In this document: piece after piece, positions 34,939 through 54,362 of the stretch | Numbering within the stretch: position 1 is the first letter of the stretch | How the letters are laid out: each line of letters starts with the position of its first letter | NCBI GenBank assembly: GCA_044892505.1 | Contig: CM097883.1 | Span: 306,714,001-306,778,000, forward strand | Length of the DNA stretch: 64,000 nucleotides | Source: Schmidtea nova | Lineage: Eukaryota | Direction of reading: 5' to 3' | The notes under the pieces: model-generated | The model's database searches: none | Told to the model about the DNA's origin: nothing | Seen by the model: only the letters and a program-made list of their open reading frames with translations | Program-made: the position numbers and the translations under genes

Positions 34939-35063
34939 TTTCTAAATTATATACATCATTTACTTTGCTTTTCTATCTTTTTACAATGTTTATAATATCG
35001 ATACCCATACTATTACGGTAATGCTTTGTTATTTACACTATTATTTACAGTCATAATCCGCCC

Positions 35064-35882: not shown

Positions 35883-36289
35883 TTGTATTTCTTGTATTTC
35901 GGTTTCCTTGTTTGTTTGTGGTTCGTCGCTTGTCTGAACTTGGTATGTCCTCTTCCATTTTCTTTAATTCGACTTTTTCTTTATTCCCTGTTTCTTTACA
36001 GTGGGTTAGGTTACCTTCTTCTCCTTCTGGGTTATGTTTTGTCCAACATATTCCTTTCACTGTCTGATCAAGTCCTGTTAATGTCAGAGTTCTTTCTGTT
36101 TTGGTTAATTCTTTTTCATCGAATTTCAGAATTTCTCCTTTTTGGAATGTCTTGCACTTTTCTATTCCGGGTTGATCTTCTTGGATTACTTTCTCCCATA
36201 TACATATATTTCCTTCTCCGTCCATTTGTATTTCTTGTATTTCGGTTTCCTTGTTTGTTTGTGGTTCGTCGCTTGTCTGAACTTGGTAT
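35596..36289. repeat. 348-bp tandem duplication with a 5-bp deletion (attta) near the junction, causing a frameshift
   Basis: tatgtcct-attta-cttccattttc at 35596 versus tatgtcct-cttccattttc at 35944; the copies are otherwise nearly identical. Confidence 0.9.
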
Positions 36290-39200
36290 TCTTTTTGTTC
36301 GTTGTACCATCCCCAGCATATTTTGTTGCTACTCCGGCCTTTTCTCCTTATTGTCATGGCCATTTGTTCTATTGTTATTCCTTTATTGATACGTTTGGAC
36401 ATTGCTAGTATTAACGCTATGCATACGACATCTTGTTGGGGTGATGCTCCTTCTCTCGTGTTAGTTATGCTTCTCTCCCCTTCTCCTGGTTTATCCGTTG
36501 TGTTTCTTATCTGAGTTGCTGGTTGCTCTATTGTGTTTTTGATTTCTTTCTTTGTTGGTTTTACTCTATACCATTCAAGTCTAGGCGTTTCATATTTCTG
36601 GCATACGACTGTCTTAGGTAGCCCCGACTTCTTTTCCTTTTCTATTATGCATATCCGATGCATGGTTCCTCCATCCATTTCTTCTATTCGTACGATATCC
36701 TGGTCGGATTTTCTGATTATGCATTTTAGTGGGTTATTTTCTCCAATTGGTTCATCTTCTCTATACCAACATATTTTCTCGACTTCCTGGACATTTATTA
36801 CTTTTATCCCTGTCTGTGGGTTTATTGCTTCTTCCCTATTAATTAATGTCAATATTATTGTTAGACCCAACCATTTTGAACTCTGCGGTAGGCTTCTGGT
36901 CCGCCTTTCATATTTTTCCTCTTCGCCTTTAATCTCTTTTATTTCCTTGTCTTTGTTGTTTATTCCTAGTTTTCCGCTTTTCGCTTCTTTCTTATTTGGT
37001 TCTTCTCGTGCTCTTTCTTCTAGTATTTCTACTCCATGGCTTGTATTATCTATATTTATCCATTGGGTTACCGATTTCTTTGGGTTTATCTTGCGTATCC
37101 ATATAGCTGATAACGCGATTATTACTGGTATGATTGCTGTTAATATTCCTAAGCCGATTAGTTCTTTAATTTCTTTATTCTCGTCTGTTTGTATAGGTTC
37201 GCTTTGGTTGAACATTATTCCGTATTGTCCCTTTAGTTTTCTCATTAATTGTTCCCGTTCTTCTTGTTTTCTTTTGACTTCTTTGATAACTTCTTCGGGT
37301 GTCCATTTTGCTTGAGGGTCGATTATTATTTTTTCTGCGTCCATTTGTTCATTCGTTTGGCTTAGTTCCCTGAATTCGAGTTTCCTTGTTATTCCTTTTG
37401 ATGTCGCGTTTACTGGTGTATAGTAGGTTTCGCATCTTTCTTGTTGGTTTCCTAGTGCGTCCATTATTTCTATTGCGCATACTTCATACTCGCTATTAAA
37501 TTGTAGTTTTTCGATCTTGATTTCTTTATTTGTTTTTCTGCATTCTCTTGATTGTCTTCTTATATGTTTCTGTACTATTATCCAACATATTTCTAATGTT
37601 TTATTCTCTATTTTCCATAATGTTAGAGTTGCTGATGTTTTTCTCTCGGGTTTCGTCGTAACTTCTTGGTTTGTTGGTTGTTTATTGTTTTTAAAGGTAG
37701 TGGTGTACTTCGGTTTTCCTTTGTTTCGTTGTTTCCTTCTGTTTTTCTGTGTTAACGTTTTAGTTCTTGTTCCGGATGAAGTGGTGTATATTCCGCATTC
37801 TAGGTCGTTTATCGTTATCTGATCATTTTTCTTTACCAAACATATTTCGTAAGTTTGTTTCCTTTCTAAACCTTTTATTTGTATCGTCGTTGCTCCTGTG
37901 CTTGTTCGACATTGTGGTGTCTTTCTTTCATTCGTCTCTTTTTCGTACTTCCTCCAGCATACTCCTTTCACATTTGGTTCTATTTCTTTTATTTCTAATG
38001 TTATGTTTAGTTTCTGCTTGATTTGTTTATTTCTCTTTCTCGTTCTCCTTCTGAACTTTATTACTTCTCCAGGTTGGAATGTTTTACATTTTGTGGTACC
38101 TTTCTTGTTTGTCTCTTTTTCTAGTAGGCATAGTTTGTACGTCTTATCTGCTTTTACTTCGGATATTTTAATTACTTTATTCGTTGTTGGTTTTCGACTT
38201 TTCCTTATTTCGTTTACGCCGATTTCCTCGTTGTTTCTCGCCCAACATTTTATGTTAGTATTCTGTGTATCTTCTACTTCTGTTATTGTCATAGTTTCAA
38301 TTTCTATTCCTTCCTCTAATCGTTTTATCATTATTAGTATGAGTGCTAAACATAATACTTCCATTTGGTAAGACACTCTTTCGGTTTCGTTTGTGGCGAC
38401 TCTTGCTTCAGGCCTCTCTATTGTAATTCGTATAGTTGGTGTTGTTTGCTTATCTATTGCCTGGGGTTTGTTGTTTTCTGTTCCCTGTGTCTCTGTCCTT
38501 CCACATTTTCCGATGATGTAATCTCCTTTGGGTGACTGTTGTATTGTCATGGCTGCTTTAGGTGTTTGGTATTTTGCACATGCGATTGTGTTGTGTGATC
38601 TTGGATGCTTTTGTTTTCTAACGGTGCATATTTTGTACCAGGTATTTAGATCTAGGTCGTTGATCTCTATGATTTCTTGCTCGTGTTTTGAGATTCTGCA
38701 ATCCATCGGTCTATTTTGTTCCGTGATTTTGTCCTTTTTTGACCAACATACTCGTTCGATTCCTTTTGCGTTTTTTATTTGTATTATTGCCCTTTCTTCA
38801 CATGTCATTCCTTGACTTGGATTAATTAACGTTAAAATCACTGTTAATAATAGTAATTCTGGTTTGAAGAATGGTTTTATGGTTGATTTATAACCTGTTC
38901 TTTGGGTGTCATTTTTATCTCCTTGGTCGTTTTTTCCTGGTTCTCCATCTTCATCTCTTTGTTTTTCGTCTTCATTTTTCTTTTCTTCCTTGTCTCGTTT
39001 CTTGTCTTTTCTCTCGTTTTCTTCTTTATCGGGTGGTTCGTGATCGTTTGAATTTTCTGAGTTGTTACCGTCGTCACTATCTGTATTGTCATCTTCCCCT
39101 GGCTCGTCGAAAATGTCGTCCTCGACATTGATTTCTTCTATTAGTTTCGCATACGCTAATGTCGTTAGATTACTTGCCTCAAACTCTTGTGTTTCTACCT

Positions 39201-41871
39201 GTTCTGGTATTACTTTGTTAGTGGATTTATATTCTAAGATTTCCTTTTTGGCCTTGATCCAATTGTTGATGTATGTCTTCATCAACTCTTTCCATTTGCC
39301 TGTGTACTTTTCTTCCTTCGGGCTGGTTGTGATCCTTAAATCCTTTCTTTCCATAAACATCTTCAATATCTCTGGCCATTTATACGTTATTAAGGCACTT
39401 CTTATGCACCAATTTTGGTTATGTTCTGTAAACTCATTAATCCTGAATGCTGGTTCGTTAGTATTCGGATTTATCCACGTAAGTATTGCTTCTGTTAGTT
39501 CGACATTATGCATCATTGTTAGTACACTGGTTTTCCTGACCGTATCAGTTAGGTAATCTATTTCTTCCTGATTTGAGATTGTTTTAATGAAGTTGACCAT
39601 TTCCCAATTATGTGTTAGTAATGCTACATCCAGAATTGAATTTTCTTTATCTGTCTTTCCGGTAAGTCCTGCACCTGCTTTGTATAGTTCTTCCAACACT
39701 TTTGTTTTCGTTTTGGCCCTTGCTGCAAATATCATGAGTGTATCTCCTTTCTCGTCTACCATATTCATGTTGCTTCCGCAGTTTAGCATTATTCGTGCAA
39801 TTTCCATTACTCTTCTATCTTTGCCATTTCGTAAAGCTCTATGTATGGGCATTATTCCGTCCTTTGGTAGTAAAAATGTTACTGGCATCTCCTTTTTTAT
39901 ATTCGTTATATCGTTACCATTGTATGTTCCTTTTGCGTATGCGTGTACTTTTTCAACTAAGGCACCGAGTATTTCTAATGCGTGTTGACAATTCTCGAAT
40001 TCTGGTAGCAACTCCTTTGCTTTTTCTTGTATCGCATCTAGTCTAGCTTGGTATGGTGCTTCTGCTTTGAAGAGTGGTGTGAGTTTCTTGTTACTTTCTC
40101 TTTCTTTTCTCTCCAAAACCTGTTTGCATTTTTCGGGGTGGTTTAGGGTTTTTACTAGTTCTTCATACTCATTTATTATCGTCTGGTATTTCTCGTTAAA
40201 ATTGTTTATGTCTTTGTATGTTATTAGTTTATCCAGCGGTTTCGCACACCATTTCCTAATCTTGTTGAATAAGGCTTCCTTCTCTTTATCAAATTTGTGT
40301 TCCTCTTCATTCTTTGTGATGTATATGTTTCCTCTGTCCAGTAAGGTTAGTAATGTCTTTGGATCGCAAATAAATTTCAAAAGGTATCTTAACAACGCGT
40401 TTTGTCCTTCGCTGTATACTTCGTTTATGTCTAAGACCCATGTATCCTCTTCTGGTCGTTTCCATTCGATTAACTTACGGATCGTATTACATTTGCCAAT
40501 TTTGATTGCCTCTTTGATAAGGTCTCCTTTTATTAATTCGTCTATTTCCCACGTGGAGTTTGCTATTATATATTCCAACATAAGTTGGTGAGAACTCCAT
40601 ATCGCGTGATTTAGCACTGTTTTATCTTCTCTATCTCGTTCTGTCCAACTGAAACGGGCTTTTATCAACAGATCTACCATTTCTTTATCTGCTTGGTAGA
40701 TGGCTGCTGTCATTAATGGAGTTTCCTGTTCACGATTCCCAACGTCTAGGTTTTGGTTTGTTTCTTTTGCGATTTTCAAGAATTCTTTTGCTCTTTCAAT
40801 GTTTTTACACTGAATCGCATTATGTAGGGCTGGTTGTCCTCCTACATCTTTTAATAAGAGTATTTCAGGGATTTTTATCAATAATTCAGAAATAATTGGT
40901 TCGGTTGGTAATCCTTGTGCGTAACGGCTAATTATGTGTCTAATGTCCCTTGATATGCCTGCTTCGTCTCTAACATGCCATCTTCCCATTATTTCTCTCG
41001 CCTTCAATAGGATTTCTTTATTTCTGATTTCTTTTTGCCTTATTTCTGTTTTGTCGTCTTCGCTGGTGTTTGCTCTGAGCATGTTTATCCTGGCTGTTTG
41101 TGATCTGGTTATTATTCGATTCTCTGGTGTTGTAGTTATCGTTTTAGGCACCTTCTTACATCTGCAGGTGTTTACATATATGGGTCGTATTAATGGTCGG
41201 TTTATTAGCTTAACTTTGGCATTATTGTCCTTTTTGTATATAATTTCATAAGGTCCTCTTCCAGGTCTTTGGAGTTTCTTAACCGTTCCTGGTATTATTT
41301 CGGGAGTTTCTATTATCACCCAGTCTCCTGGTTTTAGGTCGTTCGCTTTAACGTTTTTCTTCTGGTCGTGTAAGTCCTTATAACTTTCCTGATAAAATTT
41401 AATGTTGAGTTCTGCCGTTTTCCATATTTCCTGCATTCTTTCTTTGAATTTGGTTACGTAGTCGTCATCTTCCATATATTGCGATAATGGTGGCTGATAC
41501 TCTAAATCTATGGGCATGTTGCATTCTCTTCCATACATGAGTTGAAACGGGCTTAGTTTTGTTGCTGCATGTATCGACATTCGGTATGCCATTAAACATA
41601 ATTTTATGTATTCGTCCCAATCAGTTTGGTGTCTGCTGACATAGTTGGATAGCATTCTAATCAATGTACCATTGAATCTCTCTGTTTGTCCATTCGTTTG
41701 TGGGTGATATGGTGAAGTTCTCAATTTTGCTATTCTGAAATAGTTTGTCACCTCGTTCAATAACTCACTCATAAAATTAGTTCCTTGGTCTGTGAGTATT
41801 TGTTTTGGAGTTCCGTATCTGCAACATATTTCTTCCACTAGAATTTTTGCTACGGTTTTTGCTTTTTGGTC
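35773..41871 (-). CDS. pol: Polyprotein part 2: integrase core + GPY/F, ankyrin repeats (two clusters, ~40460-40850 and ~39300-39860), acidic linker, duplicated FN3-like membrane cassettes; same frame as part 1 after a TAA
   Basis: TDQG-35-E (GQTERFNG) and GPYEII. ANK-like PALHNAIQ, TPLMTAAIY, PIHRALRNG and DTLMIFAARA. Hydrophobic segments at 38809-38862, 38317-38358, 37099-37161, 36826-36873 and 36388-36429. Confidence 0.92.
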   Translation of the reverse strand, partial: DQKAKTVAKILVEEICCRYGTPKQILTDQGTNFMSELLNEVTNYFRIAKLRTSPYHPQTNGQTERFNGTLIRMLSNYVSRHQTDWDEYIKLCLMAYRMSIHAATKLSPFQLMYGRECNMPIDLEYQPPLSQYMEDDDYVTKFKERMQEIWKTAELNIKFYQESYKDLHDQKKNVKANDLKPGDWVIIETPEIIPGTVKKLQRPGRGPYEIIYKKDNNAKVKLINRPLIRPIYVNTCRCKKVPKTITTTPENRIITRSQTARINMLRANTSEDDKTEIRQKEIRNKEILLKAREIMGRWHVRDEAGISRDIRHIISRYAQGLPTEPIISELLIKIPEILLLKDVGGQPALHNAIQCKNIERAKEFLKIAKETNQNLDVGNREQETPLMTAAIYQADKEMVDLLIKARFSWTERDREDKTVLNHAIWSSHQLMLEYIIANSTWEIDELIKGDLIKEAIKIGKCNTIRKLIEWKRPEEDTWVLDINEVYSEGQNALLRYLLKFICDPKTLLTLLDRGNIYITKNEEEHKFDKEKEALFNKIRKWCAKPLDKLITYKDINNFNEKYQTIINEYEELVKTLNHPEKCKQVLERKERESNKKLTPLFKAEAPYQARLDAIQEKAKELLPEFENCQHALEILGALVEKVHAYAKGTYNGNDITNIKKEMPVTFLLPKDGIMPIHRALRNGKDRRVMEIARIMLNCGSNMNMVDEKGDTLMIFAARAKTKTKVLEELYKAGAGLTGKTDKENSILDVALLTHNWEMVNFIKTISNQEEIDYLTDTVRKTSVLTMMHNVELTEAILTWINPNTNEPAFRINEFTEHNQNWCIRSALITYKWPEILKMFMERKDLRITTSPKEEKYTGKWKELMKTYINNWIKAKKEILEYKSTNKVIPEQVETQEFEASNLTTLAYAKLIEEINVEDDIFDEPGEDDNTDSDDGNNSENSNDHEPPDKEENERKDKKRDKEEKKNEDEKQRDEDGEPGKNDQGDKNDTQRTGYKSTIKPFFKPELLLLTVILTLINPSQGMTCEERAIIQIKNAKGIERVCWSKKDKITEQNRPMDCRISKHEQEIIEINDLDLNTWYKICTVRKQKHPRSHNTIACAKYQTPKAAMTIQQSPKGDYIIGKCGRTETQGTENNKPQAIDKQTTPTIRITIERPEARVATNETERVSYQMEVLCLALILIMIKRLEEGIEIETMTITEVEDTQNTNIKCWARNNEEIGVNEIRKSRKPTTNKVIKISEVKADKTYKLCLLEKETNKKGTTKCKTFQPGEVIKFRRRTRKRNKQIKQKLNITLEIKEIEPNVKGVCWRKYEKETNERKTPQCRTSTGATTIQIKGLERKQTYEICLVKKNDQITINDLECGIYTTSSGTRTKTLTQKNRRKQRNKGKPKYTTTFKNNKQPTNQEVTTKPERKTSATLTLWKIENKTLEICWIIVQKHIRRQSRECRKTNKEIKIEKLQFNSEYEVCAIEIMDALGNQQERCETYYTPVNATSKGITRKLEFRELSQTNEQMDAEKIIIDPQAKWTPEEVIKEVKRKQEEREQLMRKLKGQYGIMFNQSEPIQTDENKEIKELIGLGILTAIIPVIIALSAIWIRKINPKKSVTQWINIDNTSHGVEILEERAREEPNKKEAKSGKLGINNKDKEIKEIKGEEEKYERRTRSLPQSSKWLGLTIILTLINREEAINPQTGIKVINVQEVEKICWYREDEPIGENNPLKCIIRKSDQDIVRIEEMDGGTMHRICIIEKEKKSGLPKTVVCQKYETPRLEWYRVKPTKKEIKNTIEQPATQIRNTTDKPGEGERSITNTREGASPQQDVVCIALILAMSKRINKGITIEQMAMTIRRKGRSSNKICWGWYNEQKEYQVQTSDEPQTNKETEIQEIQMDGEGNICIWEKVIQEDQPGIEKCKTFQKGEILKFDEKELTKTERTLTLTGLDQTVKGICWTKHNPEGEEGNLTHCKETGNKEKVELKKMEEDIPSSDKRRTTNKQGNRNTRNTNGRRRKYMYMGERNPRRSTRNRKVQDIPKRRNSEIR

Positions 41872-44800
41872 TTACATGGCAAATGCTTCCGGGAATTTCG
41901 TCAGGTAATCCGTTATTACCAGTATATAAATATTTCCGTTTAAACTTTCTGGTAATGGTCCTATTACGTCCATTGCTATAGTTGTCATTGGTTCTGCTGG
42001 TATTGGCATTGGTTGTAGTGGGTTTTTCCATTTCTTCCCACTATCCTTTCTAGTTGCGCAAGTTAGACAATTTTTAATCCATTCTTTTATATCTTCTTCC
42101 ATTGTTCGCCAATAATATTTCTGTCTCATCCGATTTATTGTCTTTTTCTCTGACATATGACCTCCTAATTTCCCATCGTGGTATTGGATCATTATCTCTT
42201 TCCTTCTGTTTTCCGGTAAACACATCAGCCTCTTTTCACCGTCTTGTATCAATAACCATCCTTTATTTATTATATATCGATGTTGATATTTTCCTATATG
42301 TTCCTTTAATTCTTTGTTATCTTTGAGTACCTCCATATTTCGAGATGTTAGGAACTCTATGATCTGTCCTAACTCTCTGTCTTCCTGTTGATCTTTCTTT
42401 AACTCACTAAAATCCAAATCTTCCGCTATTAACACACAAATTCGTTGTACATCAGGATCGGTTAGTTCTGGAAATGTCAGTCTTGACATACAATCTGCAT
42501 TCGCATTCGCTCTTCCTGTTTTAAATTTTATGTCTGGTGAGTACTCCTGTAGCTGCATTGCCCATCGCATTAATCTACTGGATGTTTCCTTATGCTGTCC
42601 TAACCATACAAGCGGTTGGTGATCTGTTGTTATGCAGATGATGTGTCCCCATAATAAATATTTAAAGTGTTTAATTGCTAGTATAATTGCTAATGCTTCT
42701 CGTTCTGTCACCGAGTAATTTTTTTCGTGCTTTTTGAATGTCCGGCTATAATATCCGATTACCCGTTCTTTTCCTTCGTCGTCGTATTGTCCTAATACTG
42801 CTCCTGCTGCATATCCGCTTGCATCTGTTGCAAGTAAAAATGGCTTCTTGAAGTCTGGGTGTACCAATATGGGTGCAGTTATCAGTTTATCTCTCAACTT
42901 TTCAAAGGCTGTTTGTTGTTCATCTCCCCATATGAATGATACATCTTTCTTTACCAGTTCCTGTATAGGCTTTGCGATTCCGGCGTAATCTTTTATAAAC
43001 TTTCTATAGTATCCACATAATCCGAGAAATTCTTGTATTTGGGTTATTGTTTTTGGTACTGGACATTCTTTTACTTTGTCGATATTTCTAGGATCCGGTT
43101 CTTTTCCTTTTGCTGACACTATGTGTCCTAAAAATGTTACTTTCTCTTTAGCCCAATCACATTTGGATGGCTTGAGTTTTAACTTCCATTGTCTAAGTCT
43201 AACGAATACATCTCGAATATCTTGTATGTGTTGTTCGAATGTACCAGAGTAAATTAATAAATCGTCTATGTAGACCATACACTGCTTTATTCCATGGGTG
43301 ACGAAATTCATGCATCTCTGAAATGATGCTGGTGCGTTTGTTAGTCCAAATGGCATCTTTCGAAATTGGTATAAGTCTCTACCGATGGTAAAGGCAGTTT
43401 TCTCTTTATCTTCTTCCTTCATTTTTATTTGCCAGTATCCGCTTTTCAGATCTAGTGATGTAAAATATGCTGCTCCCTGTAATGTTAGTAGCATTTCGTT
43501 GATGTCTGGTAATGGGTAAGTATCTCGTTTTGTCACTGTATTCAATCTTCGATAATCTATGCAGAATCTCTGTGTTCCGTCTTTCTTCTTTACCATTACT
43601 ACTGGAAATTGCCAGGGTGAACAACTTGGTTCGATCACTTCTGCATCCAACATTTTCTTCACTTCTGTTTCTGCTACTGCTTTCTGTGCTTCTGCTAATT
43701 TGTATGGTCTTAATGCAATTGGTGTTTCGTCGGTTAATGGTATCGTATGTAACGTGACATCACATGTTCCTAGATCCAAATCGGATGCTGCAAATATATC
43801 CTTATACTCCATCAAAAGTTTTTCTAACTGCTTCCTTTGATCTTCATTTAGTAGTTCACTATCAATATTCCACGTTGGTTCTTTATCTTTCTCTGCTCCT
43901 TCTATTGGTAGTTCGATATCCATCATTGGGGTTAGTTTGCCTAATCTTTCGTTTTCGTAGATTATTTTATCCTCCTCGTCGAAATTTACTACGTTTATTG
44001 GGATTTCTCCATCATCGTTTATGTTAACTAGTCCTCTTGCCATTGGCAACGCTTTTCTTTTCTCGAATCTCTTACTTGGTTCGAAAATCATATCCCCTTG
44101 GATTGTCGGATCTATTTTTACGTAACATATTTTCTCCTTTCTTGCGGGTATTATCATTTGCTTTGAACTTGTCACTTTGGCTTCTATTGCGCATATTTGT
44201 CCTGTGCGATCCTTTAGTCTCATTGTTCCGAGGTCGATTACAATCTCTTTAAATAGTGCTGGCATCAAATCTGTTCCGATAATGCAAGGTACGCTTAATG
44301 CTGGTATGACAGCTACGTACGTATCGATTTCCGTGTTTAAATGGCGTATTTTTACCCACCATCTTCCTGCTACTTCTACAACTTCTTTGCTACATGCAAT
44401 TACATGGACGTTTGTCCTTTCTATTTCTCGTCTTTGCTCTTGCGGTATCCATTTGATGTCGATGGCGGACATGTTTGCTCCCGTGTCTATCATTGCTTCG
44501 ATTTCCCTTCCGTTAATCTCTATTGTCGTGGTTAATACTGGACCTGTGTTTGATGACATTACTGCGATCGTGTGTGTATCCCCTTGTGGATCTACGCTTC
44601 TACATCTTCTCATTTTATAATCTTCTGGTATCATGGGGTATACATTTGTCATTGGCATCATTTGCATCGTGCCATTTTTTCCTCCTTGTAGTGGTTCTTG
44701 ATACATGGTTGGTGGAGGTGCGTAACATTTCCATGCGTCGGCTGGATTCTTTTCGATGTATTGTGGTGCTTGGTTCTTATACACTTGTCCTCCCTTATAG

Positions 44801-47800
44801 TCGTCATCGTCGTCATCGTCGTCACTTGAATCATTTTGGGTTTTATATCCTTTCATCCTCTCCCACAGTCCTTTTCTTTCTTTCTTGAGCTGTTGTCTTG
44901 CTTGTTCGTCATTCATTATCTTTTTAAATTTTCGTCCTACTTCTTCATCTGTTCTCTTCATTTTTGCTAATATCTTAAGGAGTCTTTTTATTCGGTGGAT
45001 ATCTTTTGAGTGACCGTGTAACACCATTGTTTTCGCAAGGAATGGTAAAAATCCTACTACCATTTTCCAATTCACTCTCTTTTCTCTCTTGTAGATATCG
45101 AAACACGCTAACATTTGCGTTATTATCACTCTGACGATTTGTATTATTAATATAACCCCCAGTATTCCCGCCATCATTTGTCCAAATATCAGGAATCTTC
45201 CCCACATTGCTTTCATCATATTTTCTGTGGCTTTCTTGAAATGTGCTGGTGACAACAACAGTTCATAATTCGGTCCTTCTCGATAATCCGTTCCTCCCGT
45301 TATTGTTACGATATTTGATAGTAATGCTTCTCTTCTTGCCGGGAATAATATATTCTGCCTTGCTGCTTCTAAATCCTTTGGACTATATATTCCGTTGTTT
45401 GAGACATCTACGTCGCTGAATTGCCTATCCTTTGACAATTGCATTAGCTCGAATTCTCTTGGTGCTATCACTTCGGATCTTCCTGGGAACATAACCCATT
45501 TACCATCTGGTTTCTGATAGAGCGGTCCGTACGCATTACTACAGTTAAATGGATTTGGTTCAAACCCTGGTGGATTGATGATTCTCGTCACTGGTTGAAC
45601 GTATCGTACTTTTCCTTTGTAATCGATTTCTAACTCATTTGTACAGGTTCCAGGTTTCAACTGCGTTGTTGCTGCTAGCGACGCGTGTGTCTTTTCACAA
45701 ATGTATACATACATTGCTTCTCCAACCACTCTTCCGAAATGTCCTTCTCTTAGTGGTAATAATGGCATCGCGCTATCTGGATTCGTAATCGCTACGGCCA
45801 ACTTTGTCTTTAATATTTCTCGATTCAGTATACAATCATTGTTTATCAGATCGTAGTACACTTTTTGTAATGAGGCTTGTCCTCTATGAAATAGGAAATC
45901 CATTTTATTATTCACATACAGGTGTAGTTTGATATCCATTGTGTCGATTTTGGGTTTCGCATTTGGCACTTCTTGTTTTGACACATATATTCCTGGGTAA
46001 TTCGTTTCGTATACCGTTGTACTACACTTAAGGGTTGCTTTCCCTTTTATGAATCTCATTCCCACATCCTGATTTGTGGTTATCAACACTGTTGGTGTGG
46101 CTCTCATCTCTATCCTTTTTTCTCTCTGATCTGGTTTCAGTTGTCTTTTATTCTCCAAAGCTTCCTTGAGATGCTTCGCTCTAGCTTTGTCGTCATCGTC
46201 TTCTTCCTGGAACGTTTTTCCTTGAATTTCGTCGAACTGTGCTCCTTGTAGCAGTTGTAATTGACATTCGTTCACCTTTGGTTTGTATACTAATGTTGAC
46301 ATTCCCGTTTGACACATGCTCCTGTCGATTTTACACATGGATAACGTTTTCATTTCCCCCGTTGTTGGTTCGAAGAATGCTTCGTAGCTTTTTAGTTCGA
46401 CTATATACGTATCCATCACCACTAAGTTGGTTGCGAGTGTTCCGAACATCGGGTAGGTTTCTCCTTGACAATATCCTTCTCCTCCCGTAATCCGTCCAGC
46501 TACATAGTACGTCTGTTGCATCATCATTCCTGGCTTTCCTTTTATCTTGATTTTATCTCTTGTTGTTACTTCTCCATGTTTAAACAGTGCTTCGCAGTCT
46601 TCTCCTTGTAACACGATTGGTTCTCTTTCCGTTCCTGGCATGACGATTGCTGAATAATGTCCTCTCCCGCAGTAGAATGCGAATCTCGTCTTCTGCACCT
46701 TACATTCATTTACCATTGTCTTTATGAGTTCTGCTTCTTGATACACGTGGTACCATTGTTCCTTTTTAATCTTTTGCAACTCTACTGGAGTTGCATCTTT
46801 GCATTGCTCCGTGCCTCTCAATGAATACTTTTCTCCTAACTTAATTTGGTCGCAATCAAACACTTCGAACGCTGTTGCGCTATCGGTGCTAATCATCCAT
46901 ATCAACATCATCATTATTATAGAACTCAAATTCATTGATGACTTCGCGTTTCTTGTTCCTGCTTGTTCTTTTCCTAACTCTTCCAATATTTTTTCGAATT
47001 TCTTTTTCATATTCTTGGCTTGTGTTTTCTTCTGGTTAGTTTTTATAAATGTTTCCCATCCGCCATTGTTAATGACGTAGGGTTCTATTTCTTTAGATAT
47101 AATCTTTGCGGTATTTTTTATGTGTCTTTCCAACGCAGTGGGTTTTGGTCGACCTCTACTCAGTGTTAGTAGGTTGTAGATATTGTACGCAATAGCTATT
47201 ACGTATTTGTTATCTGTTTCCGCTCCTTCTGTCAATTTCTTTATTAACGTAGTGGTTCCTTGCCAGTCTAAATGATTTGACTTCGTCTTTTCTTTTATGA
47301 ATTCCGGTAAGATGGGTGCAATTGCGCTGTGCAATGACTTCGCCTTTTCGCTTATCTCAGTTATGCGCCAGTATTTTTTCAATTCCGGATCAATTATTGC
47401 CAATATTTCCATTATTGTTTTTGATATCCATTCCTCACCTTGACATATTGGTGTTGTCTCTTTTTCTTTTATCTCCGCGATTTTATTTAATTTCTTTAAA
47501 CATACTTCCCATTGATCTTGTCTCTTTTCATCTTTATTTCTGATGACTACATTTGCCGGATCTGTCTTGGGTCTACCTCGAGGTCGTCTATCCATTCCTG
47601 TACCCGTTTCCACAAATCTTGTTGCTCGTCCGGTTTCTTCCGTAACATCTCTTGGTTCGTTAGCTCTTTCTTCCAACCATCTTTCCATTTCTTGTGTTAA
47701 TCGTACATTTTCGACATTCGCTCCTCTTGTTTCGTCTTCCGTCAAATCGTTTACTTCTTCTATTATTATCTCTTCTTCGACTTCTGTTTCTCCGGTGTTG

Positions 47801-50800
47801 GTTACTTGTACTGTCGTAGGTAATTCTTGTATTCTTTCGAAAATGTTATCGTCTTTTTCCTTTGTTAGTTCGGTTAATTCTTCTATCATATCGTCGCTGT
47901 CTGTTAAAATTTCGTCCACGTCGTATGGTTGTGGTGGAGTCATTTCTCTATTCCCTCTGGGTGTTGTCTCAGATCGTCTTGAACTTGTCCCTGGCGTTGG
48001 TACTGATTTCATCGGGCTCGGCGTACTTATACTTCCGTGTGGTTTATGGTTTTCTTCTTTACGTTTTAATGGTTGACCTGCTATTGCTTCTACTGTCAAG
48101 GTATTCATGAGATCTAGTTGTGCTGGCGTTATTCCGATTTCCAAACTGTTATCTAATGATCGTCCTTGGTGTTGTAAATGGAATGGTGGTTCGTATCTCA
48201 ATTTCTTTTTAATATCTCGAATTTTTTCTGCTATTCCTACCCACAATTCTTCCTTATCCTTGTTTGGATATATTATTCTTAAATGCACTTTTTGTGGAAT
48301 TTCCTGCGAGAATTCTTGATTTCTCCATTTCCTAATTACGTGGTCTAGTTGTTCCGGGCACCACTCGTTAACTCTTTTATATTCTGCGATTGCCTTTGCC
48401 ACTTTACGCAAGCATGTTATATCTTCTCCATTAACCACGAAAAAATCTGCGAGACCTTTTATTATTTTTCTCTTACCGTGCGCATTAGTTTTTAATAATT
48501 CGACAAATTCCTCCGTTTTTTGCTTTTCCTTTTCTAACCATATGGCCACTGTTTCTGGTCCATCTAGGTCTATTGGCGTGGCTTTCCTTGTCACCATGCA
48601 AACCCTTCTCATTTCCGGTTCGCAGTCATATTCCATTCCTCTTTCATATTCTTCTTCATATTCCCCTTCCTTTGGTACCCAACATTTTCCTTTCTCGTTC
48701 CATTGTTTTTCTACGGGTGTTCGTCTTTGTCTGTTGAGATTGAGTTCTTCTAATACATTTTCCCACTCTGGCCAAATTCGCCAATTTCGATAGATGTCTA
48801 CTATTTGTTGTAATTTGCGCACAACTTCTTTCCGTCGTTCCCGTTCTCTTTTCTCATCTTTAGCAGTTTCTCTGGGTGTATCGTCCATTCTGATAACGTG
48901 GATGGTTTGGTGATTATCCCATATACCGATTTTATATAGTCGTCTCTCATCGTGATCCCATAATACATGTTCGTTATATTGTATGATTATGTCGTCTTCC
49001 CATTCGTCTTCTGGTTCTCTTTGCACTAGTGTCTCGTTGATGACATTTATTAATTCTTTAATGGTGCAATCCGCTACTACTTCAATTTCTTTGGTGTCTT
49101 CATTAGGCAATTCCACTGAAATTTTTAGATCTGTTATTTTCCCTTGTCTGAACATTGTTTTTCCCATTTTTGCGATTAATTTGTCGTGTGAGATTTGTGA
49201 CCATCTCGTATGACTTGTGTCACGTATGCACTCAATACATTGTTTCAATTTCTCGTATTCGCTTCTCATTAACTCCTTTCTATGTTTTTTGACTTGTGGT
49301 ATGATTTGCTCTATCAGGGAATTTAGATTCTTTCGTAAGACTCGTTCTTTCTCGTATTCTAACCGAGGTTTTATTCTCCTTTCAAAGCACGTGTTTGCTT
49401 CCCTTGCAACTTCTTGTAGGTTCTCTTCTTCCTTCTCATCACATATTGATAACAGAGTTATTTCTCCTGGCCATATACCTGTTTCTACTAAGTGCGTTCT
49501 TTTCTTTACGAGTCTATTCTGCGAATAGATGAATTTGTTTTTATATGAGCTCCCTAGTCTATCCTCTACCCATCTGTAGATATCGTCTGTAAATGGAGTT
49601 TTGATCCAGATTCTTGGTGTAGATGTATTTATTATTATTGAGATGGTGTAATTGAGGAGTGGTTCCTCTATTAATTTCCCTACGTATCGATTTAACATGT
49701 CCACTTCCCGATCTTGTAACCATTCTTTGTAGTTCATTTGTAGTAATGCTTTCATGAATTTCCGATATTGTTTCTTGTCCATGAACTCTTCGTTATATAT
49801 TACTTCTAGCGAGTTATCTAGTAATTTCTGGATTTCATCTACTTTTATCTGTGTAGGTTCTGAGGTCTTTATTACTTTTATCTCTTTGTTTTCGTCTTCG
49901 GATTCGTTTAATATGTCTCCTGCTAGGCTACTGATGTCGCTATCTTCTTCCTCATCGGAAAACTCTCTGGCGGTATTTCTTAACATTTTAATATGTGCTA
50001 TTTGGTTCGTTTCTCCTTGTATATTCTTCGTTGGTTCTGGTTCGTTTTTGTCAATCTCTGGTGTTGGTTCCCTCTTGTCCTCTATTACTTCGACTTTTCT
50101 CATTTTCTTCTCCAACTCGTCTATCTCTTTCAAACGTCTTCTTATCATTTTTCCTTTAAATATTCGACTGATTCGGGTTTCGCGACGCACTGGTGGTGGA
50201 ATTTCTTCTGATTCTATTTCTTTGATTCTCATCACATTTCTTTTTGTCTCTGTTACTCCCATGTTTTCCCATATATCCGTTAATTTCAATTTTACTGATG
50301 GTGCATCTCCTATTTGTAAGAACGCTTCTCTGGGCAGTTTCGTTACTCCTGGAATCATCTGGTTTACTTTATTGAATAGTATTTCCACCTTTTCTTTTGC
50401 GTTATATTGGAATCGAAACACATGGTCGTTGGGCATGATTACCATCATTCCTTTTTTCCAAATTTTCCTTCTCTCTTCTTGGTTTATCTTAGTTTCCTCT
50501 TCCTTTTCTACTTCTTTTTCTACTTTCTCATCTTTTTGTACTATTTCTTTTCCACTTTCGTTGTCGGCTGAATTCATTTCTAGTGTGGTTTCTTTTTCGC
50601 GAGTATCTGTTTGGTTTGTTGCTCTTAGCATGTTGATTCTTAGAGGTTGTCGCTCTCTTTCTTGTTGTTTTTGTTCGTCTTCTCTTTGTATTCTTGCCCA
50701 TTCCTGAGCGTGTCGTGCTTGACTTTCTCGATTCAATCGTTCGTTTTCGCTTTCTATTTTTCTCATCATGCTAATTTGTTGTTGGTTGGTTTGCGGATTC

Positions 50801-52302
50801 CCTCTCGTCGTATTGTTTATAAGTTCCGTCAATCTTTGAACTTCTTGCATCAAATGTATTTCTTTGGTGGTAGTTTTGTTCTGATTATTGTTATTATTGG
50901 CTTGTTGGTTTCCATAATCTTGTCGATTTGCAGTATTTGTTTGATTTCCGTAATTTGGTCGGTTTCCGTTGTTCTGCCAATTTCCTCGTTGATTACCTTT
51001 TTGTCCGCAATTCCTTGAGTAGTGACCAGGTCGTCCGCAATTAAAACAGATTATCGTAGAACATCTACTCTCCGAGTGTCCTTTAACTCCACATTTTCCG
51101 CAATTCAAATTTTGATAGCATTCTTGCTGCCAATGTCCCAATTTTCCACATGTTTTACATTGTTTTGTTTGTCCTTGAGGATTGTAATTGTTTTGGTTTC
51201 TAAAGTTTTGCACTTTATTTCCTTCGTTCCTTCGTTGAGGGGGTGGTCGGTTTAATTGTTGCGAATTTGGAATGTGATTGTTGAGATTTACTTCTGGTTC
51301 GGTTTGCGCCGTGTCCATGGCCAAATAAATTCTACCCTCACTTCCTATCATATGCAGTTCGAATCTGTTAGCTGTTTCTAGTGCTTGGTCTAAGGTTTTA
51401 CATCCTTGGCATCCCACTTGTGCTCTTATGTCGGGTCTTCTTAGTCCTCCTATGAAGATAGCTGCCATTAACTCCTCGTTTATTGGACCTCCATCCTTGA
51501 ATACCGATTTTGCTAATTTTTTCAGTTCGCTCGCGTATACCGCATTAGATTCATTCATCTTTTGTTTCCTCATTGAAAATTCTATGAATGCTTCGCTTAG
51601 CACTTTATTTATCCCAAATGTTTGTTGGAAAAAGTCCTTTATCGCTGGCCAGTCTGCAGGTGGATTTGTACCGTTTTTTGCTTCCAAATATAGGTCCAAT
51701 GCGCTATCTTTCAAATATAACTGTATTCTACTTGCTGTTGTCTCAGCTTTCCATTTGCATACTTCCACAAATATGCCAAATTCCTTTAAAAAAATTTCTA
51801 ATTTACTCGCATCTCCGTTAAACGGTTCTCCTGAAAATTTATCCTTTATTTCTTCTCTTGGTTCACCCATTTCAATTCCGCTGTCTTGAGTTATTTTACT
51901 TTCGTTTCCTCTTGTTTCTAGTTCGTTGTTATGTTCGTCTTCTGTTCCACTCGAGCTTGAATCGCTTTCAGTTTCTCTTATTACTACGTTATCTGATATT
52001 ATACTTTCGTTATCACTCTCGTTGGTTTCTACCTCTGGTTCTACCTCGTTTTCTACTTCTTCGATATTATCGTTGTTAGTTTCGTCGCTTTCTATTTCGC
52101 TTGTTTGGTTCTCCTTGGGTTCCGCTTGGTTCTCTTTGTTACTTGAGCTGTTGCTTACTACTGACAATTTATCGTTTTCGATAATTGATTTATCTCTTAT
52201 TATTTTCCTCGCTTTACTCCCTTGTGGGTTTTTGTGGTTATCTTTGCCGGCTTTCTGCTTTTTTGTTGGCTTTATTGCGACACTCTTTGCTCCTTTTCTC
52301 AA
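41872..52302 (-). CDS. gag-pol: Polyprotein part 1 (3476 aa): Gag - Ubl-like - Bcl-2-like - glycoprotein - protease - RT - RNase H - integrase N-terminus
   Basis: Capsid-like PFNGD...FLKEF (~51330-51845); three CCHC knuckles (51007-51160); DTG (44479-44487); YIDD (43261-43272); LATDASGYAAGAVL, TDHQPL and NANADCMSR; HHCC (H..GGH...CLTC). First in-frame ATG at 51870. Confidence 0.96.
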   Translation of the reverse strand: MRKGAKSVAIKPTKKQKAGKDNHKNPQGSKARKIIRDKSIIENDKLSVVSNSSSNKENQAEPKENQTSEIESDETNNDNIEEVENEVEPEVETNESDNESIISDNVVIRETESDSSSSGTEDEHNNELETRGNESKITQDSGIEMGEPREEIKDKFSGEPFNGDASKLEIFLKEFGIFVEVCKWKAETTASRIQLYLKDSALDLYLEAKNGTNPPADWPAIKDFFQQTFGINKVLSEAFIEFSMRKQKMNESNAVYASELKKLAKSVFKDGGPINEELMAAIFIGGLRRPDIRAQVGCQGCKTLDQALETANRFELHMIGSEGRIYLAMDTAQTEPEVNLNNHIPNSQQLNRPPPQRRNEGNKVQNFRNQNNYNPQGQTKQCKTCGKLGHWQQECYQNLNCGKCGVKGHSESRCSTIICFNCGRPGHYSRNCGQKGNQRGNWQNNGNRPNYGNQTNTANRQDYGNQQANNNNNQNKTTTKEIHLMQEVQRLTELINNTTRGNPQTNQQQISMMRKIESENERLNRESQARHAQEWARIQREDEQKQQERERQPLRINMLRATNQTDTREKETTLEMNSADNESGKEIVQKDEKVEKEVEKEEETKINQEERRKIWKKGMMVIMPNDHVFRFQYNAKEKVEILFNKVNQMIPGVTKLPREAFLQIGDAPSVKLKLTDIWENMGVTETKRNVMRIKEIESEEIPPPVRRETRISRIFKGKMIRRRLKEIDELEKKMRKVEVIEDKREPTPEIDKNEPEPTKNIQGETNQIAHIKMLRNTAREFSDEEEDSDISSLAGDILNESEDENKEIKVIKTSEPTQIKVDEIQKLLDNSLEVIYNEEFMDKKQYRKFMKALLQMNYKEWLQDREVDMLNRYVGKLIEEPLLNYTISIIINTSTPRIWIKTPFTDDIYRWVEDRLGSSYKNKFIYSQNRLVKKRTHLVETGIWPGEITLLSICDEKEEENLQEVAREANTCFERRIKPRLEYEKERVLRKNLNSLIEQIIPQVKKHRKELMRSEYEKLKQCIECIRDTSHTRWSQISHDKLIAKMGKTMFRQGKITDLKISVELPNEDTKEIEVVADCTIKELINVINETLVQREPEDEWEDDIIIQYNEHVLWDHDERRLYKIGIWDNHQTIHVIRMDDTPRETAKDEKRERERRKEVVRKLQQIVDIYRNWRIWPEWENVLEELNLNRQRRTPVEKQWNEKGKCWVPKEGEYEEEYERGMEYDCEPEMRRVCMVTRKATPIDLDGPETVAIWLEKEKQKTEEFVELLKTNAHGKRKIIKGLADFFVVNGEDITCLRKVAKAIAEYKRVNEWCPEQLDHVIRKWRNQEFSQEIPQKVHLRIIYPNKDKEELWVGIAEKIRDIKKKLRYEPPFHLQHQGRSLDNSLEIGITPAQLDLMNTLTVEAIAGQPLKRKEENHKPHGSISTPSPMKSVPTPGTSSRRSETTPRGNREMTPPQPYDVDEILTDSDDMIEELTELTKEKDDNIFERIQELPTTVQVTNTGETEVEEEIIIEEVNDLTEDETRGANVENVRLTQEMERWLEERANEPRDVTEETGRATRFVETGTGMDRRPRGRPKTDPANVVIRNKDEKRQDQWEVCLKKLNKIAEIKEKETTPICQGEEWISKTIMEILAIIDPELKKYWRITEISEKAKSLHSAIAPILPEFIKEKTKSNHLDWQGTTTLIKKLTEGAETDNKYVIAIAYNIYNLLTLSRGRPKPTALERHIKNTAKIISKEIEPYVINNGGWETFIKTNQKKTQAKNMKKKFEKILEELGKEQAGTRNAKSSMNLSSIIMMMLIWMISTDSATAFEVFDCDQIKLGEKYSLRGTEQCKDATPVELQKIKKEQWYHVYQEAELIKTMVNECKVQKTRFAFYCGRGHYSAIVMPGTEREPIVLQGEDCEALFKHGEVTTRDKIKIKGKPGMMMQQTYYVAGRITGGEGYCQGETYPMFGTLATNLVVMDTYIVELKSYEAFFEPTTGEMKTLSMCKIDRSMCQTGMSTLVYKPKVNECQLQLLQGAQFDEIQGKTFQEEDDDDKARAKHLKEALENKRQLKPDQREKRIEMRATPTVLITTNQDVGMRFIKGKATLKCSTTVYETNYPGIYVSKQEVPNAKPKIDTMDIKLHLYVNNKMDFLFHRGQASLQKVYYDLINNDCILNREILKTKLAVAITNPDSAMPLLPLREGHFGRVVGEAMYVYICEKTHASLAATTQLKPGTCTNELEIDYKGKVRYVQPVTRIINPPGFEPNPFNCSNAYGPLYQKPDGKWVMFPGRSEVIAPREFELMQLSKDRQFSDVDVSNNGIYSPKDLEAARQNILFPARREALLSNIVTITGGTDYREGPNYELLLSPAHFKKATENMMKAMWGRFLIFGQMMAGILGVILIIQIVRVIITQMLACFDIYKREKRVNWKMVVGFLPFLAKTMVLHGHSKDIHRIKRLLKILAKMKRTDEEVGRKFKKIMNDEQARQQLKKERKGLWERMKGYKTQNDSSDDDDDDDDYKGGQVYKNQAPQYIEKNPADAWKCYAPPPTMYQEPLQGGKNGTMQMMPMTNVYPMIPEDYKMRRCRSVDPQGDTHTIAVMSSNTGPVLTTTIEINGREIEAMIDTGANMSAIDIKWIPQEQRREIERTNVHVIACSKEVVEVAGRWWVKIRHLNTEIDTYVAVIPALSVPCIIGTDLMPALFKEIVIDLGTMRLKDRTGQICAIEAKVTSSKQMIIPARKEKICYVKIDPTIQGDMIFEPSKRFEKRKALPMARGLVNINDDGEIPINVVNFDEEDKIIYENERLGKLTPMMDIELPIEGAEKDKEPTWNIDSELLNEDQRKQLEKLLMEYKDIFAASDLDLGTCDVTLHTIPLTDETPIALRPYKLAEAQKAVAETEVKKMLDAEVIEPSCSPWQFPVVMVKKKDGTQRFCIDYRRLNTVTKRDTYPLPDINEMLLTLQGAAYFTSLDLKSGYWQIKMKEEDKEKTAFTIGRDLYQFRKMPFGLTNAPASFQRCMNFVTHGIKQCMVYIDDLLIYSGTFEQHIQDIRDVFVRLRQWKLKLKPSKCDWAKEKVTFLGHIVSAKGKEPDPRNIDKVKECPVPKTITQIQEFLGLCGYYRKFIKDYAGIAKPIQELVKKDVSFIWGDEQQTAFEKLRDKLITAPILVHPDFKKPFLLATDASGYAAGAVLGQYDDEGKERVIGYYSRTFKKHEKNYSVTEREALAIILAIKHFKYLLWGHIICITTDHQPLVWLGQHKETSSRLMRWAMQLQEYSPDIKFKTGRANANADCMSRLTFPELTDPDVQRICVLIAEDLDFSELKKDQQEDRELGQIIEFLTSRNMEVLKDNKELKEHIGKYQHRYIINKGWLLIQDGEKRLMCLPENRRKEIMIQYHDGKLGGHMSEKKTINRMRQKYYWRTMEEDIKEWIKNCLTCATRKDSGKKWKNPLQPMPIPAEPMTTIAMDVIGPLPESLNGNIYILVITDYLTKFPEAFAM
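44800..46935 (-). other. env: Envelope-like glycoprotein domain within the polyprotein (chuvirus/Jingchuvirales-G-like)
   Basis: Signal-like MNLSSIIMMMLIWMISTDSATA (46870-46935), then FEVFDC...SLRGTEQC, a Cys-rich ectodomain, DCILNREILKTKLAVAITNP...GRVVGEAMYVYIC and a TM at 45100-45195. The motif pattern matches my recollection of chuvirus-type glycoproteins; not confirmed by search. Confidence 0.8.
47040..47510 (-). other. Bcl-2-like helical domain within the polyprotein
   Basis: BH2-like IEPYVINNGGWETF (47047-47090); weaker BH1-like NHLDWQGTTTLI upstream. Confidence 0.55.
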
Positions 52303-52891
52303 CTGGATTACTTTTATATTATCAATTTTCTTGTCCTATCTATTATCGTTTTTCTGATTCTTCTTGTTGCTTGATTGATTTGATTGATTTGTATATCTAA
52401 AATACAAAGGTCCTCAACGATACCTTATTGTTATCGTCGCGCTTTTATTCCCTTTCTTTCGGGATTACTTATTACTGGGTTTTCATTATTTCCCATTCCC
52501 AGATTCCCCTTTATTTTTAGTCTATTTAAATTATCTATAGACTGGTCACAATTATCTATTTATGTCGTAATAATTATCTATGTTTTATCAAATCCATTAC
52601 TTTTCCCACAGTTTCCCAATTTATTGGTCGCTCGAGCGCTCTAATTCCCTGAGTCTTTCTGACTCGTTTATCATTTCTATTCATTATTCTCTGATAGCGA
52701 TCGTTTTACTCATTCTGCCGGTTGCTCCGGTCAGCCCAAATTTTTACTATTCTCCTTGCATGCTTTATTTAAGGTTGCATAATCAGCTTTACTCGCATTT
52801 CTTAACTACTAGTGCGCACTATTCTAAATCTCGTCGACGATTACACTATGGGTCTATATTACTATTTATCCGGATATCTCTATAATCCACT

Positions 52892-53111
52892 ATGGCTCTT
52901 TTGGCCTCAATTTTATATCTCACATGGCTCTATTGGCCTCATTTTACTATCTCAAATGGCTCTATTGGCCTCAATTTAATATCTCACATGGCTCTATTGG
53001 CCTTAATTTAATATCTCACATGGCTCTATTGGCCTTAATTTAATATCTCACATGGCTCTATTGGCCTTAATTTAATATCTCACTGGCTCTATTGGCCTCA
53101 AATTAATCTCT
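52892..53111. repeat. 32-bp tandem repeat x7 in the element 5' leader
   Basis: atggctctattggcct(c/t)aatttaatatctcac at 52892, 52924, 52956, 52988, 53020, 53052 and ~53084. Confidence 0.95.
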
Positions 53112-53155
53112 CCATAACGCCTAGCTAGGTCATTCAATAAGGCTCGTTGGCCTCA

Positions 53156-53270
53156 ACCCTTTTTTTCAAGGGACAAACCGCTAATAACCCTTTGTTTCAA
53201 GGGACAACTCTAATAACCCTTTGTTTCAAGGGACAAATCTCCTAACCCTTTGTTTCAAGGGACAAACCTC
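53156..53270. repeat. ~29-30 bp repeat x4, each with hairpin-forming CCCTT-N6-AAGGG, in the 5' leader
   Basis: aaccctttgtttcaagggaca at ~53156, 53186, 53215 and 53244. Confidence 0.9.
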
Positions 53271-53747
53271 GTATAACTTTACTTAACCGGTTAATCACAA
53301 TTCCCTACTTCGCTAGCGATTAAAATTTCTCAGCTGAGTTATAACTACTTCTATGCGAGCTGACTATGCACCTTTTATTCTCTCAAAATTGTCATTTATC
53401 TCTTTATTCTATCATAACTAATTCCTGATCAGTCTGCTTCAACTTTTTATTTATTTTTCTCTATGCGCGCTTTACTCCATCGAGATTTCCCCATCTTTCT
53501 CCCCAACCACAATATACAAAAAGATCGCGTTGGTCTATTAATGCAGGATGTGGTGATCAATCACATCACAAAAACTTTCCAACATTTGCGATGGGCCCCT
53601 TTCTATATACTTGACTAGGTTGATCAATTGGTACCCCTCAATGGATTCTTATCGGACTACTTTGCAGTAGCTCAAAAATTATTTAAATACAATGATTGTT
53701 CCCATGATTCACCATTCGACATTTTACTAATCAACTCTAAACATTTA

Positions 53748-54251
53748 TTACAAATAAACTATAATTTTTTCATTCACAGTAAAGTTGCACATCGGACACC
53801 GGTCACGCTTGTTGGCACAGTTCTTACAAAAACGGAGATGTCCGCAAGGTAAAAACATAATTTGTATTTCGTTGTTTTCACATATATAGCACTGTCGGTA
53901 TTTTTTCGCTGCTTCTACCCCTTGCGCCCTCCATCGATTGTATGTTGGGGTTAATTGTTGTTCTATTTGTCTGCATCTAATGTTTAGCTCCGCATTCTCT
54001 AGTCGTGCTCGGTACCATTTGTAGCGGGTTTTTATGTCGATTTTACTTGTTCTTTCTGTTATCTTTATTAATTCATCTGTTTCTTCGGTCTGTGTTGTGG
54101 GTTCTTGAAATTCAATTTCTCTAAATCGGTTTATTTTCTTGCCAATTGTTGCTAATGTTTCGTTTTCTGTGTTGAGAAATTCTTCGATTTCTTTCAGTTT
54201 TTCCTCCATTTGCTGAATAAATAATCGTTTTAACTTTGTTGTTTTTATCAT
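53748..54251 (-). CDS. Leader ORF: coiled coil + C-terminal C3HC4 RING (IAP/MDM2/Neuralized type), no BIR seen
   Basis: CYICENNEIQIMFLPCGHLRFCKNCANKRDRCPMCNFTVNEKIIVYL at the extreme C-terminus. Confidence 0.88.
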   Translation of the reverse strand: MIKTTKLKRLFIQQMEEKLKEIEEFLNTENETLATIGKKINRFREIEFQEPTTQTEETDELIKITERTSKIDIKTRYKWYRARLENAELNIRCRQIEQQLTPTYNRWRAQGVEAAKKYRQCYICENNEIQIMFLPCGHLRFCKNCANKRDRCPMCNFTVNEKIIVYL

Positions 54252-54254
54252 TTT

Positions 54255-54362
54255 TAAAGTAGTAATATGTCTCGTTTTGTGAATTTAATATTTATTTAAA
54301 GTAGTAATATGTTTCGTTTTGTGAATTTAATATTTATTTAAAGTAGTAATATGTTTCGTTTT
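54255..54362. repeat. 42-bp tandem repeat x2.6 directly upstream of the RING ORF
   Basis: taaagtagtaatatgt(c/t)tcgttttgtgaatttaatatttatt at 54255, 54297 and 54339. Confidence 0.92.

Follow-up and report, generated by a model that had tools for sequence, protein, structure and literature searches.

The DNA considered here, a stretch of 64,000 nucleotides from Schmidtea nova (GenBank assembly GCA_044892505.1, contig CM097883.1, positions 306,714,001 to 306,778,000 of the forward strand, hereafter the window), contains a giant long terminal repeat (LTR) element of the Gypsy type in which an envelope (Env) glycoprotein is encoded in frame between Gag and the aspartic protease (PR). The polyprotein occupies an open reading frame (ORF) at 41872-52335 of the minus strand, with 3487 codons from stop to stop, and its residues are numbered from 52335. 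This single frame holds, in order, Gag, a long charged linker, a Bcl-2-like domain, a signal-peptide-like segment, the Env ectodomain, a transmembrane (TM) helix, a tail, and then PR, reverse transcriptase (RT), RNase H (RH), and integrase (IN), and the translated frame has zero stops from Gag to RT, as the initial annotation of this DNA had stated for both sides of env. A reading of the locus on the plus strand was ruled out by its many stops.

The segment ahead of the protease had been taken for a chuvirus-like glycoprotein, and this assignment holds, given that the ectodomain matches the Pfam family Monjiviricetes_fusion (PF24664) at E 5e-70, its 236.6 bits lying above the cut-off of 27. 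Distant relatives, and 19 of the 20 sister copies, keep the segment in frame. The ectodomain, described beforehand as Cys-rich and of ~560 residues, has very nearly that length (563 residues), with an enrichment in Cys that is modest (14 residues, or 2.5% vs 1.5% elsewhere), and a single N-glycosylation sequon. The AlphaFold model of aa 1823-2445, built with 110 sequences, has a mean pLDDT of 90, and the comparison with viral fusogens that had been proposed as a check came out in favor of the assignment: in Foldseek, the glycoproteins of chu-like viruses rank first among viral models (E 1e-40), with other groups close behind, and herpesvirus gB ranks first among solved structures (E 5e-13, TM-score ~0.35-0.40). 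The sequence profile of env also matches gB (E 0.002), and the modeled ectodomain is predicted to be a class III fusogen fold. A furin-like R-x-K/R-R site lies in a loop of the ectodomain (46125-46114, minus strand) and is present in 20/20 sister copies; it was not seen at the equivalent place in the other env family of the same genome that was examined.

A search over 1.84 billion representatives gave 939 matches at E up to 0.001, the best of which are long polyproteins with 29-40% identity, while the weaker matches (20-29%) are mostly stand-alone glycoproteins of ~650 residues. Env and protease lie in one chain in 12 of the 20 database proteins that were scanned, and three of these 12 also show Gag or CCHC matches upstream. 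D-T/S-G motifs follow env six times in the relative P0152, three times each in P0004 and P0006, and twice each in P0003 and P0015. The protein HBK71150.1 (P0008), labelled as belonging to a Flavobacteriaceae genome bin, is an env-PR-RT-IN Gypsy polyprotein, and is likely a eukaryotic contamination of that bin.

Within the genome itself, a 3-kb query from the env region returned 894 candidate copies, 40 of which were scored (full length, 96-100% identity), and 20 of these 40 were fetched. Nineteen of these 20 sister copies have a single open frame that runs from the Bcl-2-like domain through to the protease, 16 have it from aa ~446 onward to the protease, and eight run from aa ~450 to 5460 without a stop or a net frame change; in 20/20 copies, the Met at aa 156 is the sole one that the open frame contains ahead of the capsid motif. 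The end of the ORF at 41872, given in the initial annotation, proved to be a peculiarity of the window copy, as the stop inside the integrase is found there only and the frame is open in 18/18 sister copies that cover the position (2/20 do not reach it), so that the family polyprotein continues for ~2000 more codons and comes to ~5300 codons counted from the first Met. Two further subfamilies in the same genome, mutually 72% identical, have the same order as the window element, namely a Bcl-2-like GGW motif, a basic stretch, the signal, env, the TM, and the protease.

The ratio pN/pS, obtained by simple counting against the window copy and descriptive in kind given that the copies are related and not independent, stands at 0.02 for the signal, 0.03 for the ectodomain, PR, and RT-RH alike, and 0.08 for the TM plus tail, and at 0.15-0.23 for the Bcl-2-like domain and the linkers between Gag and env. 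Env is constrained as tightly as RT, and is under purifying selection. The idea of env as dead cargo was rejected on the ratio of 0.03, and that of an assembly artefact or single-copy accident on the open sister copies and the distant relatives. Synonymous divergence from the sister copies is uneven along the ORF, being 0.19-0.21 in pol, about twice that of env (0.11), and lowest (0.04) near the ubiquitin-like domain, which may reflect recombination between subfamilies. On C1 of the same genome, at ~590.85-590.96 Mb, four env-region matches lie ~33 kb apart, and are perhaps a tandem array of the element.

Table 1. Features of the element, in the direction of the minus strand (coordinates of the window; KD19, hydropathy score).
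Feature	Position	Strand	Evidence and remarks
Whole Gypsy LTR element, 29,557 bp	28031..57587	minus	TG...CA ends, 4-bp target-site duplication
5' LTR, ~2.96 kb	54632..57587	minus	
Accessory RING ORF upstream of gag	53748..54284	minus	zf-C3HC4_3 E 2.5e-12
Gag: first Met (aa 156), capsid-like region, three CCHC knuckles	51007..51870	minus	zf-CCHC E 7e-7; Retrotran_gag_2 weak, E 0.017
Possible ubiquitin/SUMO-like domain	48886..49134	minus	Pfam Ubiquitin_4 E 0.055, weak, below cut-off
Bcl-2-like helical domain, aa ~1634-1771	47023..47436	minus	ends in BH2-like GGW motif
Signal-peptide-like segment, aa 1801-1822	46870..46935	minus	hydropathy; small residues at -3 and -1
gB-like class III fusion glycoprotein ectodomain (predicted), 563 aa, aa 1823-2385	45181..46869	minus	
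TM helix, aa 2387-2405	45121..45177	minus	KD19 2.55
Second, weaker hydrophobic segment	45019..45075	minus	KD19 1.29, two Lys, Pro; kinked helix in AlphaFold model
Env cytoplasmic tail and linker with acidic run, ~190 aa, to ~aa 2593	44557..45018	minus	
Aspartic protease (DTG, aa 2617-2619)	44257..44529	minus	RVP E 5e-7
RT, RNase H, integrase zinc finger, start of integrase core	41872..43593	minus	Pfam RVT_1, RT_RNaseH, Integrase_H2C2; stop 41872-41874
Same frame past the stop: rest of integrase, ankyrin repeats, FN3-like repeats	35773..41871	minus	rve, Ank_2; FN3 only E 0.33
Further signal-like segments past the integrase	38871-38809, 36876-36826	minus	hydropathy
TM past the integrase	37158-37102	minus	hydropathy
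Accessory TRAF-like ORF (RING, zf-TRAF, MATH)	33114..34493	minus	MATH_2 E 1e-20
3' LTR, ~3.05 kb	28031..31082	minus	

The two LTRs are 99.6-99.8% identical, and the 5' LTR is followed by a stretch like a primer-binding site, putatively of the tRNA-Pro type; the 64-kb window holds no tRNA gene with which to compare it. The FN3-resembling repeats that come after the integrase and the ankyrins (35773-38900, minus strand) are Cys/Trp repeats, the polyprotein ORF has at its end a duplicated stretch of ~340 bases (35609-36289, 99.7%), and a further small ORF, which encodes two hydrophobic segments, lies inside the element (31304-31864, minus strand). The spacer between PR and RT gave no Pfam match, and thus no dUTPase-like domain was found there, and none of the ten ORFs scanned with Pfam matched a BIR domain. 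As to a possible frameshift that would yield Gag by itself, six slippery-like heptamers are present in frame, by an uncontrolled count on an A-rich strand.

The succession of a signal-like segment, a TM, a tail, and the DTG protease is as the initial annotation described it. Hydropathy, together with the small residues at -3 and -1, predicts a signal peptidase site before aa 1823, and the segment has two variants among the 20 copies. In 18/18 proteins with sequence upstream of env (the window protein, two loci, and 15 database proteins), the 11-mer that precedes a conserved Y/F-D-C outscores in hydropathy every such stretch farther upstream, and the position of this internal signal coincides with that of the N-terminal signal of 13 stand-alone glycoproteins. 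A Met is found no more than 15 residues ahead of the signal core in only 8 of the 18 proteins, so that the group does not conserve a private start codon.

Beyond the ectodomain, the 45 residues that follow the TM contain 9 K/R vs 3 D/E, and between the TM and the second hydrophobic segment the window protein has a KD19 of -0.1 and a KREKR run. This second segment, conserved as W-K-x-x-x-G-x-x-P-F-L-A-K/R, has a counterpart of similar strength (KD19 0.9-1.8) after the TM in 14/14 stand-alone glycoproteins, and, once three truncated proteins were dropped, the TM scored 1.8-2.6 vs 1.0-1.7 for the second segment in 16/18 proteins, with second segments of 0.3 and 0.5 in the other two. On its hydropathy, it is predicted to be a membrane-surface helix in the cytosolic leaflet, and, given that it is weak, charged, and also present in stand-alone glycoproteins, Pol is likely cytosolic. 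An internal signal followed by one strong TM would likewise place the protease on the cytosolic side, which we consider likely. The two signal-like segments and the TM that come after the integrase mean that Pol would sit between two membrane anchors.

The domain just ahead of the signal resembles the Bcl-2 family. A profile built from three sequences hits Bcl-xL at its BH2 end (E 6e-4), and the model of the domain, which is of low confidence (mean pLDDT 48), has Bcl-2 family members as its best Foldseek rows, weakly (E 1e-3 at best), and as its top 18 rows in VIA (Z 9.2, rmsd 2.8, 116 aligned), where a Z of this size can occur by chance with helical domains. The BH2-like motif is ~45 residues from the signal. 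Bcl-2 proteins carry a C-terminal tail anchor, and, given that the signal sits where this anchor would be, a cut by signal peptidase would leave a tail-anchored Gag-Bcl-2 precursor.

These features are best explained by a Burro-type giant Gypsy element (after the planarian elements compared below), the polyprotein of which is probably threaded through the membrane of the endoplasmic reticulum (ER) and cut by signal peptidase, with both halves tethered to the membrane until their later release by the protease. The internal signal would stay in the membrane, with the N-terminus in the cytosol, and would send the ectodomain into the lumen, where the cut by signal peptidase would leave the Gag-linker-Bcl-2 chain anchored by the cut signal, which is also how the hepatitis C virus core and the flavivirus capsid are anchored. 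The TM would then bring the chain back to the cytosol, and PR-RT-RH-IN would begin on the Env tail. Both halves would thus lie on the cytosolic face of one membrane, from which the protease of the element would free the capsid, the nucleocapsid (NC), PR, RT, and IN, either before or after the closure of the particle. The initial annotation had also proposed a split by signal peptidase, and its cytosolic placement of the protease agrees with the hydropathy, but its free Gag half would have to be given up, as the retained signal would act as a C-terminal membrane anchor. None of the three adverse outcomes that had been named beforehand appeared: there is similarity to viral glycoproteins, the sister copies keep the segment in frame, and the topology, as judged from hydropathy, does not put the protease in the lumen.

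A bolder proposal is that the assembly of Burro-type elements is flavivirus-like, not retrovirus-like, with a signal-anchored Gag precursor and an Env whose tail takes Pol in its entirety into the particle as it buds, so that the capsid, fusogen, and enzymes would be delivered 1:1:1 by tethering, without frameshift, readthrough, or Gag-Pol fusion. This we regard as doubtful. If it is true, a Bcl-2-like protein would take its tail anchor from the Env signal, and a Pol that rides on Env would be packaged by a route distinct from both Gag-Pol fusion and the RNA-based packaging of foamy viruses. The conserved signal and the single strong TM make it testable how an element with env wedged in before pol assembles its particles.

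Several points weigh against the threaded and tethered polyprotein. Its topology is read from hydropathy and charge, and the second segment is conserved and reaches a KD19 of 1.5-1.7 in some relatives, so that a second crossing is conceivable. The GGW motif was found by eye near the signal in 7/18 proteins, so that the idea of a Bcl-2 anchor applies to some of the lineages only. An output of Gag, Env, and Pol of 1:1:1 is unusual, Env trimers might gather three proteases and activate them early, and an intact env is no proof of particle production. A short motif, taken as a candidate protease site, failed to tag the place ahead of PR in 14 relatives that had no part in its definition, being present there 0/14 times in its strict form, 1/14 in its core form, and 6/14 in its loose form, against backgrounds of 0.01, 0.05, and 0.30. 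In the ORF of the window this motif occurs 11 times vs 2.9 in shuffles, an excess inflated by the definition of the motif after the fact. None of its sites falls in the ectodomain; PR is flanked on each side, and others lie where the capsid ends, behind NC, between RH and IN, and at the IN terminus. As a general feature the motif was set aside, being unsupported in the relatives, and is kept as a lead only.

These candidate sites bear on the possibility that the chain is threaded as proposed and that Pol is freed from the Env tail by the protease at the ER and packaged through contacts with the RNA or with Gag, in which case the tether would have no role in packaging. The sites that flank PR (aa ~2590-2594 and ~2714) include one ~25 residues ahead of the catalytic Asp, a cut at which could free Pol ahead of packaging, and those between RH and IN and at the IN terminus point in the same direction, as does foamy virus Pol, which is packaged through a complex of Gag, genome, and Pol in the sections of PMC7828637 covered. 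Against this stand the post hoc nature of the sites and their lack of confirmation in relatives, and, as the first three steps are held in common with the tethered polyprotein, timing is the sole difference. Early release is a possibility to be taken seriously, if still an improbable one.

A different solution would be the use of separate messages, with splicing that skips env to give Gag-Pol, and a spliced or internally started message for Env or Env-Pol. Drosophila gypsy makes its env from a spliced message. The signal of the window copy starts with a Met, donor-like words are found at 48476 and 48339, and the stoichiometry problem would be solved; foamy virus Pol is also made from a spliced message (PMC7828637, in the sections covered). 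However, a Met near the signal is the minority condition among the 18 proteins noted above, and a crude scan of this A-rich strand gave no strong acceptor-like site before the signal (best 9/18 pyrimidines) or in the tail region (best 10/18), which also has no in-frame stop. Separate messages have no need of stop-free junctions, and yet both junctions are kept open in relatives of 29-40% identity, which leaves this explanation unlikely. Among the matches listed for four runs, which are contigs from one study, no env-skipping joint was present, and this is no evidence on splicing either way.

Two other alternatives concern the membrane itself. If the signal were leaky, some chains would remain wholly cytosolic and supply the Gag...Pol precursor with which the element transposes inside the cell, and Env would come from the translocated chains alone. 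The short, Met-rich core of the window signal (KD11 2.5, near the low end of 2.2-3.7), which comes ~1650 residues into the chain, would suit this, but most relatives have stronger cores, and an unfolded 560-residue disulfide domain between Gag and Pol would presumably make a poor precursor, so that a leaky signal seems a slim prospect. Least probable of all, to the point of being hardly credible, is that the second hydrophobic segment crosses the membrane and leaves the protease of the Env-bearing form in the lumen. The segment is indeed conserved and helical in the model, but its KD19 of 1.29, its two Lys and central Pro, and its equal presence in short-tailed stand-alone glycoproteins speak against a crossing. 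PR, RT, and IN are, moreover, under strong selection, and the near identity of the LTRs indicates a recent transposition, and with it a working, non-luminal Pol.

The closest known systems, compared here with the portions of the cited papers that were covered, are the Burro / GYPSM1 giant gypsy-like elements of planarians (PMC6431247), which have env in frame between gag and pol. Like the window element, Burro is of ~30 kb with one huge ORF, a Gag with three CCHC knuckles, a BCL2-like domain directly ahead of the in-frame env, and then PR-RT-RH-IN, with mononegavirus glycoprotein matches in env, as well as ankyrins, MATH_TRAF_C, and RING. The ~5300 codons of the window polyprotein and its three CCHC knuckles fit the ~5000 aa and the two or three knuckles of the Burro type. 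Of the other Burro traits, namely a ubiquitin/SUMO-like domain, a dUTPase-like domain between PR and RT, and a BIR domain, the window shows a sub-threshold Ubiquitin_4 match for the first and, in the PR-RT spacer and the ten ORFs scanned, no match for the other two. Here the TRAF-like gene occupies its own ORF, downstream of the polyprotein, whereas in Burro it is inside ORF1 (S. mediterranea) or in an upstream ORF (D. tigrina). The same paper tied the Burro env to gypsy Env (HHpred 96.7%), whereas fold searches place the window env with class III gB, and its Burro section proposes neither a topology nor a mode of processing. Expression of Burro, and its involvement in stem cells, have been reported (PMC13465017, PMC8532177), and an effect of the family on planarian stem cells is stated in PMC13465017, citing another study.

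The second set of relatives consists of the GAG-ENV-POL elements with a gB-type env that have been described in Nematoda, Bryozoa, and Platyhelminthes, with six in S. mediterranea (PMC13524379). These HSV (herpes simplex virus)/gB-type errantiviruses share with the window element a Ty3/gypsy pol, a gB-type env before pol, and many near-identical copies, and in the window element the gB-type ectodomain likewise lies between a predicted signal and a TM, with PR-RT-RH-IN in the Ty3/gypsy order. By eye, its env has short motifs in common with the ectodomain of Smed_errantivirus_5, and a second family in the same genome closely resembles Smed_errantivirus_1. The main text of PMC13524379 uses neither "in-frame" nor "polyprotein", and Pol release or packaging is not discussed in the parts covered. 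More generally, the literature search, in the portions of the sources covered, gave no proposal or test of signal peptidase processing for gag-env-pol elements, and Sacco et al. 2022, Grohme et al. 2018, and the Burro1 B-IAP study may discuss processing.

The glycoproteins of chu-like and other Monjiviricetes viruses belong to the same Pfam family and are the best structural matches, with 13-20% identity in the top structural rows, but are stand-alone genes with an N-terminal signal, whereas the window env is internal to a polyprotein. Anakin (PMC7642597), which bears a chuvirus G, is a BEL/Pao element, whereas the window element is Gypsy, and in the ORFs scanned no Pao-type Pfam family was found at E up to 1, the Pol domains being of the Gypsy type. 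The hookworm Atlas virus (PMC9094657) also has one stop-free polyprotein with Gag, Pol, and Env, but is a belpaovirus with the order Gag-Pol-Env and a class II phlebovirus-like fusogen, and, as its Pol stays fused to Gag, it has no topology problem. Foamy viruses (PMC7828637) resemble the proposed model in that their Pol is supplied other than by a plain fusion to Gag and in that their Env signal region stays in the membrane with its N-terminus cytosolic; they differ in making Pol and Env from separate messages, in their class I Env, and in having no covalent link between Gag and the signal.

The in-frame env, the novelty of which the initial annotation had implied, is thus part of a published layout (PMC6431247, PMC13524379, in the parts covered), and, as the gag-env-pol architecture was already known, what the locus contributes is a young member of a described family, without any new system. 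To what is described for these elements, the present comparison adds the predicted signal-like segment before env in 18/18 proteins, and comparative support on the topology that it suggests.

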